Assembly (NCBI GenBank): GCA_045643465.1
Contig: JAZUKV010000010.1
Location: 6,412 to 70,411 of the forward strand
Origin: Clostridia bacterium
GTDB taxonomy: Bacteria; Bacillota; Clostridia; TANB77; CAG-508
DNA: 64,000 nt
Direction of reading: 5' to 3'
Made by a program: the position numbers and the translations under genes. This document shows, one piece after another, positions 9,135 to 54,729 of the stretch. The notes beneath the pieces were generated by a model. That model worked only from the letters and a program-made list of their open reading frames with translations. It ran no database searches and had not been told where the DNA came from. How positions within the stretch are numbered: position 1 is the first letter of the stretch; every line of letters starts with the position of its first letter.

Positions 9135-9178
9135 TCACAATTAATGCGTGAAAATAGTAATTTGTAGAGGTGAATTAG

Positions 9179-45905: not shown

Positions 45906-47276
45906 ATGGAAATTCCTGTACAAAAAAATAAGGAATATATTGTTGATATAATTGATAATGGATTTGAAGGAGAAGGTATTGCTAAAATAGATAATTTTAC
46001 AATTTTTATTGATGGGGCAATAAAAGGAGAAAAATGTAAAATTTTAATTATGAAAATAACTTCATCACATGCTTTCGGGAAATTATTGGAAATATTAGAA
46101 GAGTCAGAATACAGATGTATGCCTGATTGTCCAACATATAAAAGATGTGGGGGATGTGATTTGCGTCATATTGATTATGAAGAAACTTTAAATATAAAAC
46201 AAGAGAAAGTACAGAATTTAATAAATAAAACATTAGATAGCAAGATTAATGTTGAAAAAACAGTAGGAATGGGAAATCCATATAATTATAGAAACAAAGC
46301 ACAATATCCAATTGGAACTGATAAAAATGGTAATAAAATTCTAGGTGTTTTTGCTAAAAGAACACATGAAATAATTCCAATAGAAGATTGCAAAATTCAA
46401 AAAGAAATTTCATATGAAATAGCAAAATATATATTAGATTATATAAAAGAAAATAAGATAAGTGTTTATAATGAAAAAACTCAAAAAGGATTAGTAAGAC
46501 ATATTGTTACAAAAGTAGGAATCCAAACCAATGAAATAATGTGCATTATAGTTATAAATGGAAAAGAGCTTCCAAATGAATTAACTTTGGCAAATAATAT
46601 AATTGATAAATTTCCAATGGTAAAAACTGTTGTAAAAAATATTAATACAGCTAATACAAATGTTATAATGGGAAATAAAAATAAAAGCATTGTAGGAAGA
46701 GGATATATTACAGATATATTAGGCGATTATACATTTAAGATTTCTCCAATGTCTTTTTATCAAGTAAATCCAGTACAAGCAGAAGCACTGTATAATATAG
46801 CTATAGAAAAAGCAAATATCAGCAAAGATGATATTTTATGTGATTTGTATTGTGGTATTGGTACTATAGGAATTTTTGCATCAAAGTTTGCTAAAAAGGT
46901 ATATGGAATTGAGATAGTTCCACAAGCAATTGAAGATGCACACATTAATGCAAAATTAAATAATATTAATAATATAGAATTTATTTGCGGAGATGTTGAA
47001 GACGCTTTTGATCAATTGATAAAAAAAGAAAAGGTAAAACCTAATGTGGTTATTGTGGATCCACCAAGAAAAGGCTTAGATAATACTACTATACAAAATA
47101 TTATGAAATTAAAGGTAGATAAGGTAATATATATTAGCTGTAATCCAGCTACAATGGTTAGAGATTTAAAAATGTTAGAAGAAATTTACGATGTAAAAGA
47201 AGTTCAGCCAGTAGATATGTTTCCATTTACTTCGCATGTTGAATGTGTGGCGTTGATGGGTCGTAAGGAAAGTTAA
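45906..47276 (+). CDS. rlmD: 23S rRNA (uracil-5-)-methyltransferase RlmD/RumA family
   Basis: TRAM domain, 4Fe-4S Cys cluster CPTYKRCGGCDLRH, SAM motif DLYCGIGTIG, PPRKG, and catalytic Cys in YISCNP. Confidence 0.9.
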   Translation: MEIPVQKNKEYIVDIIDNGFEGEGIAKIDNFTIFIDGAIKGEKCKILIMKITSSHAFGKLLEILEESEYRCMPDCPTYKRCGGCDLRHIDYEETLNIKQEKVQNLINKTLDSKINVEKTVGMGNPYNYRNKAQYPIGTDKNGNKILGVFAKRTHEIIPIEDCKIQKEISYEIAKYILDYIKENKISVYNEKTQKGLVRHIVTKVGIQTNEIMCIIVINGKELPNELTLANNIIDKFPMVKTVVKNINTANTNVIMGNKNKSIVGRGYITDILGDYTFKISPMSFYQVNPVQAEALYNIAIEKANISKDDILCDLYCGIGTIGIFASKFAKKVYGIEIVPQAIEDAHINAKLNNINNIEFICGDVEDAFDQLIKKEKVKPNVVIVDPPRKGLDNTTIQNIMKLKVDKVIYISCNPATMVRDLKMLEEIYDVKEVQPVDMFPFTSHVECVALMGRKES

Positions 47277-47493
47277 GAAACCGTTGATATTACTGCGTTA
47301 TATCGTTTCGATAAAATTGAAAAAAAGCTATAAAATTAGCAAAAAATTAGTCAAAAATTGACCAGTTTGACATAATTAAAAACAACCTGGTTAAAGGTTG
47401 ATTGGTCAAATTAAATAAAAAATAAGTTAAAGTTTTTCTCTAAATAAAGCATTTTTATGCTTTATTTTTTTTGAAAAAAGATTTGGAGGTAAT

Positions 47494-47856
47494 ATGAACG
47501 ATTCAAAAATTAAAAATAAGATATATAAGATTAATGAAAAATCATTAAAGAAATTTGATGAAATAATAATGGATTCAATAATAGGATTAACTATTTATAA
47601 TAAAGCTGATAAAGATATGTTACAAAGATTAACTTTGGCACATATCTCTTTTTTTATTGAAAGTGATTTTAAAAAATTTGAAACTCTCTCAGATGAGGAA
47701 AAAGATTTGTATTGTAAAATTCTCTTTGATGGAATATATGAATTATTTGAAAACGATGAAGATAAAAGAGTTATTAAAGATTTAATAAAAATATTATATA
47801 TTTTTTTAGATTGCTTTTTAGAGGTGAATTTGAGGGAGGTGATGCTAAAAGTATAA
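47494..47856 (+). CDS. Hypothetical protein (120 aa)
   Basis: GGAGG RBS and host-like codon usage. No family recognised. Confidence 0.55.
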   Translation: MNDSKIKNKIYKINEKSLKKFDEIIMDSIIGLTIYNKADKDMLQRLTLAHISFFIESDFKKFETLSDEEKDLYCKILFDGIYELFENDEDKRVIKDLIKILYIFLDCFLEVNLREVMLKV

Positions 47857-47957
47857 TGAAACGCACAGAAGAAAAATTATGATAAGGGATAGTTACTCTA
47901 GTTAGTTATGAAAATGCCACAAAATCGATTGTGGTGCGAAGTGAAAGGTAGGATTAT

Positions 47958-49079
47958 ATGAATAACTACAAAAGATATTTTTTAACTAGTGAATCTGTTA
48001 CAGAAGGGCATCCTGATAAAGTATGCGATTATATTTCAGATTCAATCCTAGATGCTTGTTTAGAACAAGATAAAAATTCGAGAGTAGCAGTAGAAACATT
48101 CATATCTAATGGACAAGTTTCTATTGCAGGACAAATAACATCAAATGCAAATATTGATATTGAAAAAATTACAAGAGAAAAATTAAAAGAAGTAGGTTAC
48201 GATGATGAAGAAACAAGTATGGATTATAAAACTTGTAAAATTAATGTAAACATTGTTAAGCAAAGCAATGATATTGCAGTTGGAGTTGATGAAGGTGGAG
48301 CTGGAGATCAAGGAATAATGTTTGGTTATGCCTGTGATGAAACAGAAAGCCTAATGCCATATGCAATAGATGTTGCTCACAAATTGGCTCATAGATTAGC
48401 TGAAGTAAGAAAAGAAGGAATAATTCCATATTTGAAATCAGATGGAAAAGTTCAAGTTACTGCAGAGTATTTGAATAACTATCCATTTAGAATAGATACA
48501 ATATTGATTTCAACTCAACACGATGCAAATGCAGATATAGATGAGCTTGAAAATGATATAATAGAAAAAGTAATCAAACCAGTTGTTGAGCCTGATATGA
48601 TAGATATTGATACAAAATTTGTTATTAATCCAACAGGAAAATTTGTTATAGGAGGAGCTGTAGCAGATACTGGATTAACAGGAAGAAAAATTATTGTAGA
48701 TACTTATGGAGGATATGCTCATCACGGAGGTGGAGCTTTTTCAGGAAAAGATGGAACAAAAGTTGATAGATCGGCTTCGTATATGGCGAGATATGTTGCT
48801 AAAAATATTGTGGCAAATGGTTATGCGGATAGGTGCGAAGTTCAAATTTCGTATGCGATTGGTGTTGCGGAGCCTGTGTCGGTTACTGTAAATACATTTG
48901 GGACTGGAAAAGTTTCGGATGAGGAAATAATTATGATAATAGAAAGAAATTTTGATTTGACACCAAGAGGGATAATTAATTCGTTGGATTTGGAGAGACC
49001 TATTTATAAATTGACGAGTAATTATGGGCATTTTGGAAAAGAAGGGTTGATGTGGGAGAGAGTTGTTGAATTGAGATGA
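47958..49079 (+). CDS. metK: S-adenosylmethionine synthetase (the last 103 codons, counting the stop, have a different codon usage)
   Basis: [49 protein letters not shown]. Confidence 0.96.
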
Positions 49080-49178
49080 GATAAATACGGATTATATTGG
49101 TATTACTCTATTATTTTTGGGGTAGCACCGAGAGAAAAAATTATATTGTAATTTTTTTAATCTTCTTTTATAATATAA

Positions 49179-49201
49179 TTATTAAAACATATAGTTAGTC
49201 T
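49179..49201 (+). repeat. Left inverted repeat (TTATTAAAA-CATATAGTTAGTCT), resembles the outer end of the IS110-type element
   Basis: The 14-mer at 49188-49201 is the exact reverse complement of 49927-49940. The preceding 9-mer matches 49953-49961 across a 12-nt indel. Confidence 0.8.
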
Positions 49202-49203
49202 CA

Positions 49204-49239
49204 TATAATGATTACATGTTCATTATACGAGTAATTTGA
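49204..49239 (+). repeat. 36-bp palindromic direct repeat, copy A
   Basis: TATAATGATTACATGTTCATTATACGAGTAATTTGA, 33/36 identical to 51453-51488. Confidence 0.85.
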
Positions 49240-49253
49240 TAAATGGAGGAAAT

Positions 49254-49889
49254 ATGAAAAAATTAGAGAATCGATTACTGGTGGCTATTTTTTTGGGAAT
49301 GGCTACTGGTACATTATGTGCATTATTGGATTTAATCCCGGGAAATAATATTGTGACAGTTAGTTCCTTTTCCGGAACGCTTGGATTCTGGGCAATTTCA
49401 GGAATGGTTGTTGTTATGCTTTATGATAGGGCATGGAAATCTGCTATTGGAACGTTTCTGTACTTCGCATTTATGAACGCTTCTTTTTTCTTTGTACATC
49501 TTCTTATTTCGCCTTTGTTTCAGTTTCCAAGAATTAGCGAGTTGTCAGATGCATTGGTACAGTCTGCGATATGGTTGATCCCATCTGCAATTTGTGGATT
49601 ATGTGCGCTGATAGCACATTTAGCTAAAAGAGACAATATGGTAGGTGTAATCGCATTATCGTTGCCAATAGGACTATTAATCTATGAATTTATATCATTA
49701 CTGTTGTCGGTAATTATTAATCATAGGTATTTATTTCAGACAATTATTGATGCGCTTGGAATATTCCTATTGTGTAAAATGTATGTATGTAAGAAAAACA
49801 AAATTGGACTTGCATTAGCAAGCTGTATCGTTGCGGGAATGTTGTTAGGATTTAATTTTGTCTTGAACGGAACAGTTCTTCAGTATTAA
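49254..49889 (+). CDS. Hypothetical polytopic membrane protein (211 aa), GC-richer than its surroundings
   Basis: GGAGG RBS before the ATG at 49254. About six hydrophobic helices. By eye noticeably higher GC than neighbouring genes. Confidence 0.6.
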   Translation: MKKLENRLLVAIFLGMATGTLCALLDLIPGNNIVTVSSFSGTLGFWAISGMVVVMLYDRAWKSAIGTFLYFAFMNASFFFVHLLISPLFQFPRISELSDALVQSAIWLIPSAICGLCALIAHLAKRDNMVGVIALSLPIGLLIYEFISLLLSVIINHRYLFQTIIDALGIFLLCKMYVCKKNKIGLALASCIVAGMLLGFNFVLNGTVLQY

Positions 49890-49926
49890 TAATATTTATT
49901 ATTAGTCCAATTATTATATTTTTAAT

Positions 49927-49961
49927 AGACTAACTATATGAATGTCAATAGTTTTTAATAA
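49927..49961 (-). repeat. Right inverted repeat, including an outward-facing TTGACA
   Basis: Minus strand reads TTATTAAAA-ACTATTGACATT-CATATAGTTAGTCT. Confidence 0.8.
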
Positions 49962-50002
49962 AAAATAAATTCAATTTTCAAAGTTTTTAGCGCACGACAA
50001 AT

Positions 50003-50022
50003 AAGCATTCGAAAGAATGCTT
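50003..50022. terminator. Hairpin downstream of the transposase gene
   Basis: AAGCATTC-GAAA-GAATGCTT. Confidence 0.6.
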
Positions 50023-50046
50023 TTTAAAATTATTTAGTTAATAAAT

Positions 50047-51225
50047 TTAAGCTGTTTTGTCAGCTTGATATACAGTATTATTTTTTAATAAATAATATAT
50101 AACACGTACTAATTTCTTAGCAACATGACCCATTACAACCATAAAATGTTTTCCTTCTGCTAGTTTCTTTTCTTTGAAGCTATTAAAGGTTGGGTTCGTC
50201 ATACATATAATTCTTGCTGCTTGAATTAAAGCATATCGAAGGTATTTTGAGCCTCTTTTAACCATTACCGAATGTGTTGAAAGAAACTTTCCAGATTGGT
50301 ATGTAGATGGGTCTAATCCGACAAAAGTTAATAATTTTGCTGGTGAATCAAACCTCGAAATATCGCTAATTTTAGCTAAAATCATTTAACCTAGGTTGTA
50401 TGAAATACCGGGAATTGTTAGAATTGGAGAATCTATTTCAATCATTATTTCTTTAATTCTTTTTTCAATTTCTTCAATTTGAGATTGAAAAAAGTAAATT
50501 GTATTAATGGTTTGTTTTAGTTCAAATGCAAAAGATTCACTGGAAGAACCAATAGACTTTCTCGCTAACTCACGAATTTCAATAGCTTTTTCTCGATTAT
50601 ATTTACCATTTGAATTATTATATAAAAGATGAGTTAAGTGGGTAAGGTTACATTCACCAATTTTCTTTGCACTTGGTAGTTCATAAAGTAAAGCTAAACT
50701 AGACTTTTGAGATATTGATGCAACAACTTGTGGAAGCTCTGGAAAAACAATTGTTACCAATCTTGAAAGTGAAGTTTTAAATTTAGAGTTTTCTTTAACT
50801 AAACGAAATTTGTGTCTAGTTAGTGACTTTAATTCATAAATGTGATATGATACTGGTATGTAGGGTTGTAGGTTATCTGTGATTAGCATTGTTGTAATTA
50901 AACGAGCATCTAGCTTATCTGTTTTAGTCTTACGAAGGGTCTGTCCTTTACGATAAAGACTGGCCTGTAATGGATTTATGAGATAAATATGGAAACCTTT
51001 ATCTGTCAGAAAGTTTAGAATATTATTACTATAGTGTCCACTGGCTTCCAATCCTACTTTAAAATTTTCTAAAGAATTAGAAAAAATAATCAAAGAATTG
51101 TAGAGGGTTTCAAAACCAATAATATCATTTGATATTGTGAGTTTTTCAATGAGTATTTCACCATCAGAATTCATGACGAAACAATCGTGTTTATCTTTTG
51201 CAATGTCAATTCCAACATAAATCAT
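50047..51225 (-). pseudogene. IS110-family (DEDD, Piv-related) transposase/recombinase interrupted by an in-frame TAA at 50386-50388
   Basis: N-terminal MIYVGIDIAKDKHDCFV (DEDD_Tnp_IS110). C-terminal ...IPGISYNLG-stop-MILAKISDISRFDSPAKLLTFVGLDPSTYQSG (Transposase_20). Both parts are in the same frame. Confidence 0.85.
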
Positions 51226-51452
51226 AAAAAGACTCCTTTACTAATTTTTCTGAGACAATGTGATACACGAAATGTTTATTAAATGTAGACTCGTTCAATT
51301 TTAAACGTCAAGCGTTATCTAACTAATTAACAATTAAATAAACATCTGTGGCTAGAGTCTATTAATAAAATCGTCAAAGCGATAGTAATTTGCACTAGTC
51401 TACAGTGTTTGCATAATACATTATGCTATGGATTAAAGAATAAAAAAATACG
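51226..51452 (-). ncRNA. Candidate IS110 bridge-RNA / structured 5' non-coding end
   Basis: Position upstream of the transposase as in IS110-group elements. Hairpin GCATAAT-NN-ATTATGC (51411-51426), twin hairpins AACG-TCAAG-CGTT (51304-51316) and ATCG-TCAAAG-CGAT (51370-51383), long-range complement GTAGACT (51285-91) / AGTCTAC (51397-403). No covariance model was run. Confidence 0.3.
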
Positions 51453-51488
51453 TATAATGATTATACGTTCATTATACGAGTAAGTTGA
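51453..51488 (+). repeat. 36-bp palindromic direct repeat, copy B
   Basis: TATAATGATTATACGTTCATTATACGAGTAAGTTGA. Internal arms TATAATGA / TCATTATA. Confidence 0.85.
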
Positions 51489-51515
51489 AATAAAAATTTG
51501 AAGGGATAGAGAATT

Positions 51516-51692
51516 ATGGAAGAAAAAGAGTATAGAAAACTAATTGACAGGTTAATAGAAAAAGAAAAAAATGGAGAGCCTCTATCCATCAGAGAAGCTG
51601 CTACATTGAGTGCATACAAAGTAAGTCAAAAGCCAAAATATGATTTCAGTGGAGTTAAAGTTATAAAATGTGATGATAGAGATGAAAGATAG
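51516..51692 (+). CDS. Hypothetical small protein (58 aa)
   Basis: ATG preceded by a weak AAGGGA RBS. MEEKEYRKLIDRLIEKEKNGEPLSIREAATLSAYKVSQKPKYDFSGVKVIKCDDRDER-stop. Hairpin terminator at 51737-51780. Confidence 0.45.
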   Translation: MEEKEYRKLIDRLIEKEKNGEPLSIREAATLSAYKVSQKPKYDFSGVKVIKCDDRDER

Positions 51693-52131
51693 CAATATAT
51701 TTATATTTTAATATTTTATGATATGAATATACAAAAAATCTCCTAAATAGAAAGACTATTTAAGGAGATTTTTACTTTTTTTATTGCGAAGTTTTTGTTT
51801 TTTATATAATACGGTTATTAAATAATATAGTGATATCTGAATAATAATTGAGAATTAGGAGGAGTTTTTTTGAATAATGTGAAAAATATTTCAATCAGTA
51901 GATGAAGGTGATTGTGGCACTTTGTATGTAAAGGATGATTATTTCGTAGATTTTAAAAGAAATTAATAAGTTTAATTACAATAAATTTTAAGGTTTAATT
52001 CATAAAAGTGTGAAATAAAGCTGATCTTTGTAAATTCTAAATAAAATTTTTTTAGTATTTACAAAAAGAAAATTTATTGATAATATTTTTAATGATAAAT
52101 AAATTATAATTAATGGATAAGGGGAAAACAT

Positions 52132-54729
52132 ATGATAAAAGTAATAAGAAATGTAATAATATTAATGTTAGTTGCGATATTAATATTTCCACAAGGAATA
52201 GTATTTGCGAAGAATGAAACATATACAATAACATTCAAATCTGTATTATCAGAATTTGCAGATGGTTCAACAGAAAATGTTGTAACTTATGATGGTAGTC
52301 ATGCAGTTACAAGTGGTACATATGAAGAGCCTACTTTTTATGCAAGTGGTGTTGAAGGAGAAAAAACACCAACATTTTTAGGATGGTATTTGGACCAGGA
52401 AGGAAGATTTAAAGCTGATTTATCAAAAATAACAGAAGATACAACTCTTTATGCTGTATTTGATAGAATTCCATATGGATTTGCATATAATGGAACAGAT
52501 GGAACAGATGGAAGTGTTCAAATATATACAATTCCTAATAGTTATGGATGGCAATTAGAAACTTGGGGGGCACAAGGAGGATATTTTACTGGGGAATATG
52601 CAAACAAGCCAGGATATGGTGGATATTCAACTGGATATATTAACAATAGCGAAAATAAAACAATATATATAACTGTTGGTGGCGCAGGAAACACTACTGA
52701 TTCTTCTGGTGCTACAATAAGCGGAGGATATAATGGCGGAGGGTCTGCCACAAATACAACTAAAACTAGTGGAATTTGGAATGCAACTGGATTTGGAGTT
52801 GGTTCTGGTGGAGGAGCTACTTCAATTCAAGATGTATTAATAGAGAATGGAGAATTAAAAAATTATGTTAATAATCTAGACAATGTTTTAATAGTTGCAG
52901 GTGGATCTGGAGGTGCATCAAAATTAAGTTCAGTTACATATAATTATGCTAGCGATCGTTTCGCAGGATCTGGAGGAGGATTTATTGGAGGTTATGGATT
53001 TGGAGATACAATACATGGAGGAGCTAATTTTGGTGTAGAATCAGCAATAGGAGGAACTCAAACGGGTCCAGGATATTATGCATTACCTGAATATGCTGGA
53101 TATGCTGTTGATAATGGTGGATTCGGCTATGGTGCTTATCCAGTTGATACTTGGGGAAGTGGTGCAGGCTCAGGATTATATGGAGGAGCTTTTTCTAGAC
53201 AAAGTCAAGTTCTAGGTAGTGTAGGCGCAGGTGGTTCAGGATATATTGGTAATTCAAATCTTTACGAGAAAAACATGTATATATATACTGCAAATACAGA
53301 TGATTTTGCCGATTATCAATCTAAGTATTATCAAAAAGGCATTAAACCATTTGAAAGCAGTGATAAGAATACATTAACTTTAAGTTCTACTCAATCTAAT
53401 TTAATAGCAACAGCAAATGTACCAAAATCAGGTAATGGATATGCTAAAGTTTCATTAAATCATATAAACGTAACTTTTATGGATACAATCGATAACATAG
53501 AATATAAATATGAAGGATACTCAGGATTGACATTTGAAAAACCATTCGAAACTAAAAGCGGTTATACAATTGAATGGAAAGATAAAAATGGAAATACATA
53601 TGATCCAACGCAACCATTATATATTGATACAGTGATTACATTGGAAGCTACTCCAATCGAATATACAATTGATTATAATGTTAGTGATAATGCTATTGTT
53701 AATGGAACAAATCCAACAACATATACAATAGAATCAGAAACATTTACACTAACAAATCCAACACCAAATGAAGGATATAAATTTGATGGTTGGAAAGATC
53801 AAGATGGAAATATATCAGAAACAGTTACAATAGAAAAAGGAAGTTATGGAAATAAAACATATACAGCAATGATAAATCCAATTGAATATTCAATAACATA
53901 TAACAATATAGATGAAAATACGACAAATAACAATCCAACAACATATACAATAGAAAGTGAAGATATTACATTATCAGAACCAGAAAAGAAATTTTATGAT
54001 TTTATTGGTTGGACAAATGATGAGATAATTGAGCCAACAACAGTTGTAACAATAGAATCAGGTTCAACAGGAAATAAAGAATATACTGCAAATTTTGAAA
54101 CAATTCCATATACAATAACATATGTTTTAGTTACAGGAATAACAGAAGACCCATTAGTAGAAGATTATAATACAGAAACAGAAGATTTTGTTGTACCAAA
54201 TTTAACATCAACAGAGCCAGGATATGAATTTATAGGATGGACTAGTGAGGAAATTGCAAAGCTAAGCGAGCCAACAAAGAATGTTGTGATAGCTAAAGGT
54301 AGCGGAGGAGATGCTACTTTAACTGCAAACTTCAAACCAATAGATTATACAATTACATTAGAGCTAAATGGTGGAAAAGTAACAGGAAATAATCCAATAA
54401 TATATAATGTTGAAACAGATGATTTTATTATTCCAAATGCAATTAAAGAGGGATATATTTTTGAAGGTTGGACAAGTAGTGATATAAAAGAATTAAGTAC
54501 ACCTACAAAAGATGTACCAATAGCTAAAGGAAGTTTTGGAAATATGACTTTAATAGCTAATTATACGAAGGAAAACGGAATAGAACAAGAGAAAAATCAA
54601 ACTATAAATAGTCCAAAAACAGGAGATAATATTACAAAATATTGTATTTCATTAATAATTTCAATAATTGTTTTGGAACTTATAAAAAAATGTAATTTAA
54701 GAAAAAATAGAAGTTATTCAAAAAGATAA
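52132..54729 (+). CDS. Large SPKTG-anchored surface protein: glycine-rich domain plus five Listeria-Bacteroides (InlB B-repeat/Flg_new) repeats
   Basis: Signal peptide. Gly-rich block ETWGAQGGY...GYGGYSTGY...ITVGGAGN...GGYNGGGS...VAGGSGGAS. Repeats of the form YTI.Y......NP..Y..E...F.L..P...GY.F.GW. C-terminal SPKTGD, TM helix and RKNRSYSKR. Confidence 0.85.
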   Translation: MIKVIRNVIILMLVAILIFPQGIVFAKNETYTITFKSVLSEFADGSTENVVTYDGSHAVTSGTYEEPTFYASGVEGEKTPTFLGWYLDQEGRFKADLSKITEDTTLYAVFDRIPYGFAYNGTDGTDGSVQIYTIPNSYGWQLETWGAQGGYFTGEYANKPGYGGYSTGYINNSENKTIYITVGGAGNTTDSSGATISGGYNGGGSATNTTKTSGIWNATGFGVGSGGGATSIQDVLIENGELKNYVNNLDNVLIVAGGSGGASKLSSVTYNYASDRFAGSGGGFIGGYGFGDTIHGGANFGVESAIGGTQTGPGYYALPEYAGYAVDNGGFGYGAYPVDTWGSGAGSGLYGGAFSRQSQVLGSVGAGGSGYIGNSNLYEKNMYIYTANTDDFADYQSKYYQKGIKPFESSDKNTLTLSSTQSNLIATANVPKSGNGYAKVSLNHINVTFMDTIDNIEYKYEGYSGLTFEKPFETKSGYTIEWKDKNGNTYDPTQPLYIDTVITLEATPIEYTIDYNVSDNAIVNGTNPTTYTIESETFTLTNPTPNEGYKFDGWKDQDGNISETVTIEKGSYGNKTYTAMINPIEYSITYNNIDENTTNNNPTTYTIESEDITLSEPEKKFYDFIGWTNDEIIEPTTVVTIESGSTGNKEYTANFETIPYTITYVLVTGITEDPLVEDYNTETEDFVVPNLTSTEPGYEFIGWTSEEIAKLSEPTKNVVIAKGSGGDATLTANFKPIDYTITLELNGGKVTGNNPIIYNVETDDFIIPNAIKEGYIFEGWTSSDIKELSTPTKDVPIAKGSFGNMTLIANYTKENGIEQEKNQTINSPKTGDNITKYCISLIISIIVLELIKKCNLRKNRSYSKR

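Follow-up and report, generated by a model that had tools for sequence, protein, structure and literature searches.

Can the promoter of a membrane-protein gene be switched on and off where that gene lies between two exactly inverted 14-nucleotide (nt) repeats, beside a recombinase gene of the IS110 family? The arrangement occurs in a Clostridia bacterium (GenBank contig JAZUKV010000010.1), and a sequence-only reading of it had proposed an ON/OFF cassette flipped by a recombinase like the pilin invertase Piv. As a fallback, the same reading had offered that the left repeat is what remains of an IS110 end-to-end junction promoter after loss of the −35 box. We analyzed the whole 64-kb stretch of DNA around the gene, here called the window, and compared it with public contigs and loci, which carry L-numbers (e.g., L001 and L006). 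With a probability of about 0.8, the right repeat is the outer end of a resident insertion sequence (IS), which we call IS-C, and the left repeat is a relic of an older copy, and the pair is not a demonstrated switch. The main parts of the locus are as follows.

49188-49201, plus strand: left 14-mer repeat, CATATAGTTAGTCT, exact.
49254-49889, plus strand: gene for a 211-amino-acid (aa) multi-pass membrane protein, between the relic and the IS and part of neither.
49927-49940, minus strand: right repeat, the exact reverse complement of CATATAGTTAGTCT.
49929-51478, minus strand: IS-C, a complete, 1550-bp insertion sequence of the IS110 family, made up of a left end that encodes a bridge RNA, a transposase gene, and a right end.

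The geometry that suggested a switch is present in the DNA. CATATAGTTAGTCT is exactly inverted at the two sites, as the sequence-only reading had it, and two exact 14-mer matches occurred in 0 of 100 dinucleotide-preserving shuffles of the window. Moreover, TTATTAAAA stands 5′ of both copies, and the right copy carries the 12 additional nt, ACTATTGACATT, that had been described as a TTGACA-bearing insert. About 0.3% of the 9-mers of the window recur in the 45 nt of the right end of the IS that lead up to the 14-mer (chance, ~0.003), so that the TTATTAAAA extension of the repeat probably reflects true homology. The segment enclosed by the repeats measures 725 bp, 1 bp shorter than the 726 bp first given, and does contain both a TATAAT at 49204-49209 and the complete membrane-protein gene. 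Inversion of this segment in silico placed TTGACA-TTCATATAGTTAGTCTCA-TATAAT, with a spacer of 18, ahead of the gene, the same promoter that had been foreseen. The predicted inversion junction, TTGACATTCATATAGTTAGTCTCATATAATGATTACATG, shares its first 29 nt with the predicted deletion junction, after which the inversion junction continues as TGATTACATG and the deletion junction as TGAACATG; further diagnostic junctions are TTATTAAAACATATAGTTAGTCTATTAAAAATAT and, for a circle of the IS, ...TAGTTAGTCTCGTATAATGAAC.

To read the repeats, the boundaries of IS-C are needed. The right end (RE) and left end (LE) of the element abut the right and left target halves (RT and LT) across a CT core and hold the left and right donor halves (LD and RD).

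49926-49918, minus strand: RT, ATTAAAAAT, 3′ of the RE-side core.
49927-49928, minus strand: CT core at the RE side (AG on the plus strand).
49929-49948, minus strand: RE terminus, TTGACATTCATATAGTTAGT, with LD and the −35 box (49948-49943) of the circle-junction promoter.
51451-51478, minus strand: LE palindrome of 28 nt, CGTATAATGA-ACGTATAA-TCATTATACG, with RD and the −10 box of the circle-junction promoter.
51479-51480, minus strand: CT core at the LE side (AG on the plus strand).
51481-51488, minus strand: LT, TCAACTTA, 5′ of the LE-side core.

These boundaries were set by comparison of 18 full copies, more than 60 RE junctions in unrelated contexts, and contig L002, in which the IS is absent. 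The comparison set included 10 contexts of a 76%-identical relative and 58 matches in species-representative genomes, the latter all metagenome-assembled genomes of uncultured gut Clostridia or Bacilli. Across more than 60 insertions of IS-C and related elements in gut Clostridia assemblies, the ends followed the consensus CT/CGTATAATGA-N8-TCATTATACG ... TTGACATTCATATAGTTAGT/CT. All of the 70-odd RE junctions read ...TAGTTAGT and then CT, the terminus TTGACATTCATATAGTTAGT being identical across copies, and CGTATAATG came directly after LT-CT at the start of LE in all 18 full copies. A 98%-identical, intact transposase, P0001, is encoded on the 1563-nt contig L006, which begins AAAATTA-CT-CGTATAATGAACATGTAATCATTATACGTATTTTTTT and finishes ...TTGACATTCATATAGTTAGT-CT-AT. 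Moreover, L002 diverges from the window exactly between 49928 and 49929, after ...TTTTTAATAG. The right repeat is the last 12 bases of IS-C followed by the CT core, and the 12-nt TTGACA "insert," judged by this alignment, is normal RE sequence.

Insertion flanks for the IS-C variant converged on (C)AAATTA-CT-ATT(T/A), with CT on both sides of all copies. The element has no terminal inverted repeats, carries the same core dinucleotide at both ends, and inserts in a sequence-specific manner, as is characteristic of the IS110 group. A second copy of IS-C was not found within the window. Three empty target-like sites are present on the minus strand of the window near 9164, 11023, and 6572, the one at 9164 being a perfect CAAATTA-CT-ATTTT.

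Whether IS-C is guided by RNA was read from the transposase gene and from the noncoding part of LE, the features of which are listed here.

50047-51225, minus strand: transposase gene of the IS110 family with 392 codons, interrupted by a TAA at 50386-50388.
51252-51411, minus strand: bridge RNA with two internal loops.
51392-51384 and 51365-51356, minus strand: target-loop guides, CAAAUUACU and UUAAUAGACU, the right one also written UUAAUAG(ACU).
51325-51319 and 51296-51290, minus strand: donor-loop guides, UAGUUAG and GAACGAG.

The sequence-only reading had assigned the neighboring gene to the IS110-family DEDD recombinases, and profile searches bore this out, with matches to Pfam PF01548 (E = 6e-39) and PF02371 (E = 5e-17). 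When the stop codon was repaired, the protein scored 211 bits, against a cutoff of 140, with the NCBIfam equivalog NF033542, "IS110 family RNA-guided transposase," and its alignment with 8WT6, the bridge recombinase of IS621 (E = 6e-23), took in the Y(E/Q)SG serine motif. The protein thus combines the N-terminal DEDD (RuvC-like) domain and the C-terminal Transposase_20 domain with a conserved serine that mark IS110-group recombinases.

Four guide segments were found within the 250-nt LE. One, CAAATTACT, is the same as the left flank plus core, and another, TTAATAGACT, is complementary to AGT-CT-ATTAA, the last bases of RE, the core, and the right flank. The other two concern the donor: TAGTTAG is the same as the end of RE, and GAACGAG is complementary to CT-CGTTC, the core and the start of LE. 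At the target of IS-C itself, LT matches the guide CAAAUUA at 6 of 7 positions, and the ATTAA of RT is the exact complement of the guide UUAAU. LE therefore holds a two-loop noncoding RNA with left and right guides for both target and donor, as in the IS110 group. Because the fold of the single LE sequence was no better than that of shuffles (z = −1.4), the structure was taken from an alignment of 8 variants. The consensus fold has a 5′ stem and two arms, with an internal loop in each arm that carries one guide pair; compensatory changes occur at two stem pairs, and the variants differ almost only in the first (target) loop. A scan of 47000-53000 against Rfam at E ≤ 1 returned no bridge-RNA family, only a spurious snoRNA match.

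Guides and flanks covary among relatives of IS-C. In six variants (L018, L019, L021, L028, L030, and L066), a changed guide is accompanied by a changed insertion flank, as follows for three of the guide-flank pairs.

Guide CTTATCC-CU: flank ...CTTATCC-CT.
Guide UUUUUUC-CU with UUUGAAAG: flank ...TTTTC-CT-TTC...
Guide CUUCUC-CU: flank ...TTCTC-CT-TT...

The donor ends were unchanged in all of the reprogrammed variants. It is by such matching of guides to flanks, with fixed donor ends, that bridge RNAs are defined (Durrant et al. 2024, PMC11208160; Hiraizumi et al. 2024, PMC11208158). One loop of the IS-C bridge RNA would read the target CAAATTA-CT-ATTAA and the other would read the element's own ends, TAGTTAG(T)-CT-CGT. 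We conclude that IS-C is, by its sequence, an IS110-family, bridge-RNA-guided insertion sequence, a previously uncharacterized but typical member. The clade offers a clean natural series of reprogrammed bridge RNAs, useful to those who work on bridge recombinases.

Comparison with IS621 and the IS110 group, for which the same two reports were the source, supports the same assignment. IS-C shares with that group the DEDD/RuvC-like and C-terminal serine domains, the lack of terminal inverted repeats with CT on both sides, a noncoding LE of ~230 nt that encodes a two-loop RNA matching target and ends, a −35 box in RE and a −10 box in LE that meet only in the circle, and a target loop reprogrammed among variants with fixed donor ends. 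The two are distant in sequence, as the E value of 6e-23 to 8WT6 indicates, and the host of IS-C, unlike that of IS621, is an uncultured low-GC gut Clostridia. Moreover, IS-C targets an AT-rich leader, CAAATTA-CT-ATT, whereas IS621 targets a repetitive extragenic palindromic (REP) element, and IS-C is known here from sequence alone.

The ends of IS-C also account for the promoter that inversion would create. When RE is joined to LE (TTGACATTCATATAGTTAGT-CT-CGTATAATGA), the junction reads TTGACA-N18-TATAAT, and at the sequence level this is kept in all variants. A split junction promoter and a 22-bp minimal donor have been described for the family (PMC11208160). By analogy with the family, IS-C should excise as a circle that brings RE up to LE, and at the circle junction TTGACA-N18-TATAAT would serve as the promoter of both transposase and bridge RNA. 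Since the RE-LE junction and the in silico inversion give the same TTGACA-N18-TATAAT, the "consensus promoter after inversion" is, on this sequence evidence, IS-C's own split, circle-junction promoter.

The LE palindrome is kept at the start of LE in all variants, with different arm and spacer sequences, and it presents the right donor half on both strands. Together with a T-run (to 51441), it has the form of a terminator-like hairpin on the IS strand, with 10 pairs plus TATTTTTTTA. The palindrome and T-run occupy 51441-51478 of the minus strand, and the equivalent position is similarly occupied in L006, L007, L018, and L021. The palindrome may stop read-through into the IS while junction-promoter transcripts start inside it.

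The copy of IS-C in the window is damaged. The TAA falls between the DEDD domain and the C-terminal serine domain (..YQSG..), and the same codon is TCA (Ser) in L001, L003, and L006, a TCA>TAA change in the window. L001 is the same locus in another sample, with the serine codon at L001 6932-6934. The earlier proposal that the stop codon freezes the switch therefore stands for this strain and fails for the locus as found in L001; the nonsense codon is, by this comparison, strain specific. In the bridge RNA of the window, three changes break otherwise invariant stem pairs, and the TATAAT just 5′ of the bridge RNA reads CATAAT. We conclude, from these sequence changes, that the window copy of IS-C is decaying.

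If the right repeat is an IS terminus, what is the left repeat? The left repeat is part of a composite of IS-derived pieces.

49179-49199, plus strand: RE-derived part of 21 nt, TTATTAAAA and CATATAGTTAGT, without the 12 nt ACTATTGACATT and so without the −35 box.
49200-49201, plus strand: CT core of the relic junction.
49202-49229, minus strand: relic LE palindrome, which reads CGTATAATGAACATGTAATCATTATATG on the minus strand and CATATAATGA... on the plus strand, with TATAAT at 49204-49209.
49230-49231, minus strand: outer CT core of the relic (AG on the plus strand).
49232-49239, minus strand: left target half of the relic, TCAAATTA, a perfect match to the guide.

In full, the plus strand of 49179-49239 reads TTATTAAAA-CATATAGTTAGT-CT-CATATAATGA TTACATGT TCATTATACG-AG-TAATTTGA. 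A direct repeat of 36 nt, 92% identical, which the sequence-only reading had overlooked, links 49204-49239 to 51453-51488, and both copies hold the palindrome TATAATGA-N8-TCATTATA, which occurs just twice in the window. This direct repeat is the key to the anatomy of the locus: as aligned, it consists of palindrome, core, and target half, one copy from the relic and the other from the resident IS. It is for the same reason that the leader of a 58-aa open reading frame (ORF) on the far side of IS-C shares the 36-nt repeat. Moreover, the reverse complement of 49204-49237 matches 34 of 34 nt of the left border of L006, AAATTA-CT-CGTATAATGAACATGTAATCATTATA.

Within the relic, the RE part (14 nt including the core) is in plus orientation and the palindrome in minus orientation, so that the inner side of the palindrome meets an RE end and core, in opposite orientation, where the rest of LE was expected. 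On the plus strand, RE-CT-CATATAATGA equals the circle junction with one mismatch, a resemblance that arises because the palindrome reads nearly the same on both strands (arms CGTATAATGA and TCATTATACG). The relic TCAAATTA-CT lies 22 nt upstream of the start codon of the membrane gene, just 5′ of its ribosome-binding site; other copies of the IS likewise have an LE that faces a divergent start codon 20-40 nt away. The relic is present in all six versions of the locus, the window and five contigs, including L002, which has no IS. A relic-like arrangement was found nowhere else in the 88 fetched loci, the rest of the window, or the contig collections genome_contigs and metagenome_contigs. Thus, 49927-49961 is a normal IS terminus and the left repeat is absent elsewhere, findings that the sequence-only reading had said would speak against its switch, and the fallback, an RE end joined to an LE palindrome, proved nearer the mark, with the refinement that the palindrome is in opposite orientation and still at its own cognate target half. 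We conclude that the left repeat is, as its sequence reads, a one-off scar of ~50 nt from an older IS copy and ordinary transposon debris.

How the relic arose can be outlined from its parts. A simple internally deleted IS was considered and rejected, as the RE end is opposite in orientation to the palindrome. An older copy would have inserted, in minus orientation, at TCAAATTA-CT upstream of the membrane gene, and the relic probably formed when recombination at the palindrome's mirror image was followed by deletion. The mirror-strand right donor half is bounded by TA, not CT. The RE junction could have recombined with the mirror site within one copy, inverting its body, or between convergent copies, deleting the intervening DNA; alternatively, a crossover within the palindrome could have joined a circle to a resident copy. 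All three routes would give RE-core-palindrome-core-target half, later deletions would have removed the rest, and a later 12-nt deletion would have removed the −35 box. We infer the order of these events. IS621 excision reportedly requires just the two donor halves, a "half-match" (bioRxiv 10.64898/2026.08.31.748434), and natural IS110 loci are reported to gather one-sided donor boundaries, inversions, and partial circles (bioRxiv 10.64898/2026.08.14.744561), reports that make products of the relic type plausible. A palindrome with RD on both strands could explain wrong-way products such as the relic, and the locus gives the half-match and expanded-locus models, both recently proposed, a tangible example.

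Some observations pull against the reading of the repeats as IS terminus and relic. Two or three events, if not more, are needed to make the relic, and no intermediate of it turned up. With a full LD, the core, and an RD with one mismatch, the relic may still be reactive should an intact copy act in trans. Orientation was read from assemblies, which give only the majority state, so a flip at low frequency may exist. Finally, no circle or tandem junction of IS-C was present in the contig collections searched: a scan for the exact pattern RE-CT-NN-TATAATGA gave 0 matches in genome_contigs and 3 in metagenome_contigs, all from an unrelated organism without similarity to the window. We therefore infer circle formation and promoter use from the family.

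A phase-variable cassette, in which an IS110/Piv-type recombinase flips 49202-49926 so that the TTGACA of RE and the TATAAT of the relic turn the gene on, has more than its geometry to recommend it. Bridge recombinases can flip DNA that lies between a donor and a target on opposite strands, and 22 bp of donor are enough when the RNA is supplied in trans (PMC11208160); excision-type recombination may require just LD and RD (bioRxiv 10.64898/2026.08.31.748434), of which the RE junction offers the former and the relic, with one mismatch, the latter. In L002, moreover, the relic, LD(12/12)-CT-RD with CAT for CGT on the top strand, and a perfect cognate target on the bottom strand ~0.7 kb away, CACAAATTA-CT-ATTAAAAAT (CAAATTA-CT-ATTAA), bracket the gene in the layout of an engineered inversion reporter; in the window haplotype the same target is occupied by the IS. 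Against this, a single orientation was found in the window and in 5 of 5 readable public contigs, from several samples, that carry the same membrane protein (L001 to L005), and no second example turned up in genome_contigs, metagenome_contigs, or the fetched loci. The resident transposase is truncated before its catalytic serine, the stems of its bridge RNA are broken, and the relic, being present in L002, predates or is independent of this IS copy. The relic RD has a G>A change beside the core, whereas the palindrome on the opposite strand provides a perfect RD in direct orientation to the RE of the IS, and deletion of the gene would therefore compete with inversion. Nor is the present orientation evidently OFF, as had been supposed, since two promoter-like sites that match at 10/12 positions, TTGTAA-N17-TATAAT (49146-49174) and TTAAAA-N16-TATAAT (49182-49209), already stand upstream of the gene; such sites are weak evidence, as the region holds 25 of them versus 17.6 ± 4.5 in shuffles.

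The features that define a Piv-type system also differ from those of the locus. Piv, the pilin invertase of Moraxella (Piv/MooV family; references 14 and 23 of PMC11208160), is domesticated and immobile, acts at fixed invL and invR sites, and has been observed with its segment in both orientations. The likeness extends to a DEDD-superfamily recombinase and to inverted repeats that flank a gene segment beside the recombinase gene. Here, however, the recombinase lies inside a mobile, multicopy 1550-bp element found at dozens of unrelated sites rather than fixed beside an invertible segment, and the right repeat is the terminus of that element at more than 60 of them. The paired sites do not belong to the locus, being an IS terminus that is absent from L002 and a scar that is present there, and only one orientation was seen, which is weak evidence insofar as assemblies show the majority state. 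The Piv-like cassette of the sequence-only reading was not borne out, and we regard a phase-variable cassette as distinctly unlikely. Equally doubtful is the related idea that the relic, as a near-perfect chromosomal donor site, lets intact copies elsewhere flip or delete the gene in trans. In the window haplotype, a half-match of the IS RE with the right half of the relic may rebuild TTGACA-N18-TATAAT before the gene. Such a mechanism would amount to an RNA-guided phase switch domesticated in nature and, if recombination of the relic in trans were proved, would be the first gene switch in nature to be run by a bridge RNA. As found, the locus carries little weight, as one more partly decayed IS110 element whose eye-catching repeat is explained as transposon debris.

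The origin of the membrane gene bears on another explanation, that the gene is cargo. When window 48755-49928 is set against L002 2772-4403, L002 is nearly identical to the window from ~48755 and 100% identical over 48990-49928. Upstream of 48755, metK of L002 is ~70-75% identical and is preceded by another gene; L002, by this divergence, is from another species than the window. The shared stretch has a GC content of 35-39%, versus 27% for the window. These sequences suggest that the relic and the membrane gene, together with the 3′ part of metK, were recently exchanged between species, with the right border at the IS insertion site; the simplest reading has homologous recombination acting within metK at one border and within IS copies at the other. 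Cargo capture would instead have the gene, lying between a same-orientation IS and the LE of the relic, mobilized as an expanded or composite IS110 unit. The minus-strand order LT-CT-[IS]-CT-RT...gene...LT-CT-LE palindrome fits such a unit, as do a gene-bearing stretch of 1.17 kb that is ~100% identical in the contig from the other species, ends exactly at the core, and is higher in GC than the window, and the description of expanded IS110 loci with one-sided donor matches (bioRxiv 10.64898/2026.08.14.744561). The shared stretch, however, starts inside metK and not at an IS-related site, which homologous exchange fits better than transposition; no correctly oriented RE lies beyond the gene, and homologues of the gene occur elsewhere without IS110 ends nearby. 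We consider cargo capture improbable, if slightly less so than a switch.

That the palindrome TATAATGA-N8-TCATTATA is instead a host operator or promoter element for the membrane gene and the 58-aa ORF, its 14-mer match being incidental, is hardly credible. Both copies of the palindrome are equally far upstream of the two genes and overlap a −10 box, as an operator would. The palindrome, CT, and a cognate target half, however, open every IS copy in unrelated genomes, the window holds only the two copies noted above, and the shuffles gave no chance 14-mer match. An operator was rejected because all IS copies start with this 28-nt palindrome.

The membrane gene is a bystander, and its present −10 box comes from the relic palindrome. 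Its product matched Pfam DUF6518 only below the cutoff of that family and matched no NCBIfam family. There are 40 homologues, some on serine-recombinase/GIY-YIG islands; the closest (74-77% identity) are in other contexts with no IS110 ends nearby, and the ancestral state could not be read from them. In L083 to L088, homologues of 74% identity lie directly downstream of a gene for a LEM-3-type GIY-YIG nuclease, and in L083 a large serine recombinase gene is found farther upstream. The family looks island borne and accessory.

Neighboring genes can be activated by −35 boxes at IS ends, which form hybrid or junction promoters. IS-C resembles such systems in the outward TTGACA at RE and in the TATAAT of the LE palindrome, which points outward on the opposite strand toward the adjacent gene. 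In the relic, unlike in those systems, the −35 box is deleted, and activation of the membrane gene from the relic is therefore not now expected. On the minus strand at 49913-49948, the outward TTGACA of RE and the flanking TAAAAA or TATAAT make weak promoter-like sites that are antisense into the membrane gene.

The locus also resembles the half-match and expanded IS110 loci (bioRxiv 10.64898/2026.08.31.748434 and 10.64898/2026.08.14.744561; ISPpu9, PMC12288879) in its partial donor boundaries near a resident IS110 and in rearrangement, with truncated copies in L003 and L078. The relic differs from them in having both donor halves around one core, which the LE palindrome enabled, and no circles or alternative junctions were seen. 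The same IS is cut at window position 50417 in L003 (from L003 position 1809 onward) and at 50700 in L078 (L078 3090-3185), and in each it is joined to unrelated DNA. Either the IS is apparently a hot spot for rearrangement, or these two assemblies are chimeric at that point.

A few minor observations concern the surroundings of the IS and its relatives. Next to the LE of IS-C lies one further reading frame.

51516-51692, plus strand: ORF of 58 aa that reads away from the LE of IS-C.

An empty site on the LE side of IS-C was sought by means of this ORF, and all 4 of 4 contigs that carry it have the IS or begin within it. Among plasmids, no annotated close relative of IS-C was found, the best match reaching just 65% identity. 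That match, NZ_OY725734.1, is a 1563-bp plasmid record of Monoglobus pectinilyticus annotated as an IS110 family transposase and is similar to IS-C over 36% of the length of IS-C; it is possibly a circular transposition intermediate that was assembled as a replicon. The three junction-scan matches in metagenome_contigs, L075 (7900-7940), L076, and L077, read ACATATAGTTAGTTAT-CATATAGTTAGTCT-TATATAATGA upstream of a gene, with the 14-mer beside a −10-like box, and the 14-mer there is probably a coincidence. Finally, GGKTAGCRCCGAGAGAAAAAATTA, which follows metK in the window (49105-49150), recurs after the membrane gene in L002 (4404-4640), where an inverted copy that matches in part encloses a GC-richer sequence of ~110 nt; the element may be small and MITE-like (miniature inverted-repeat transposable element) or structured.

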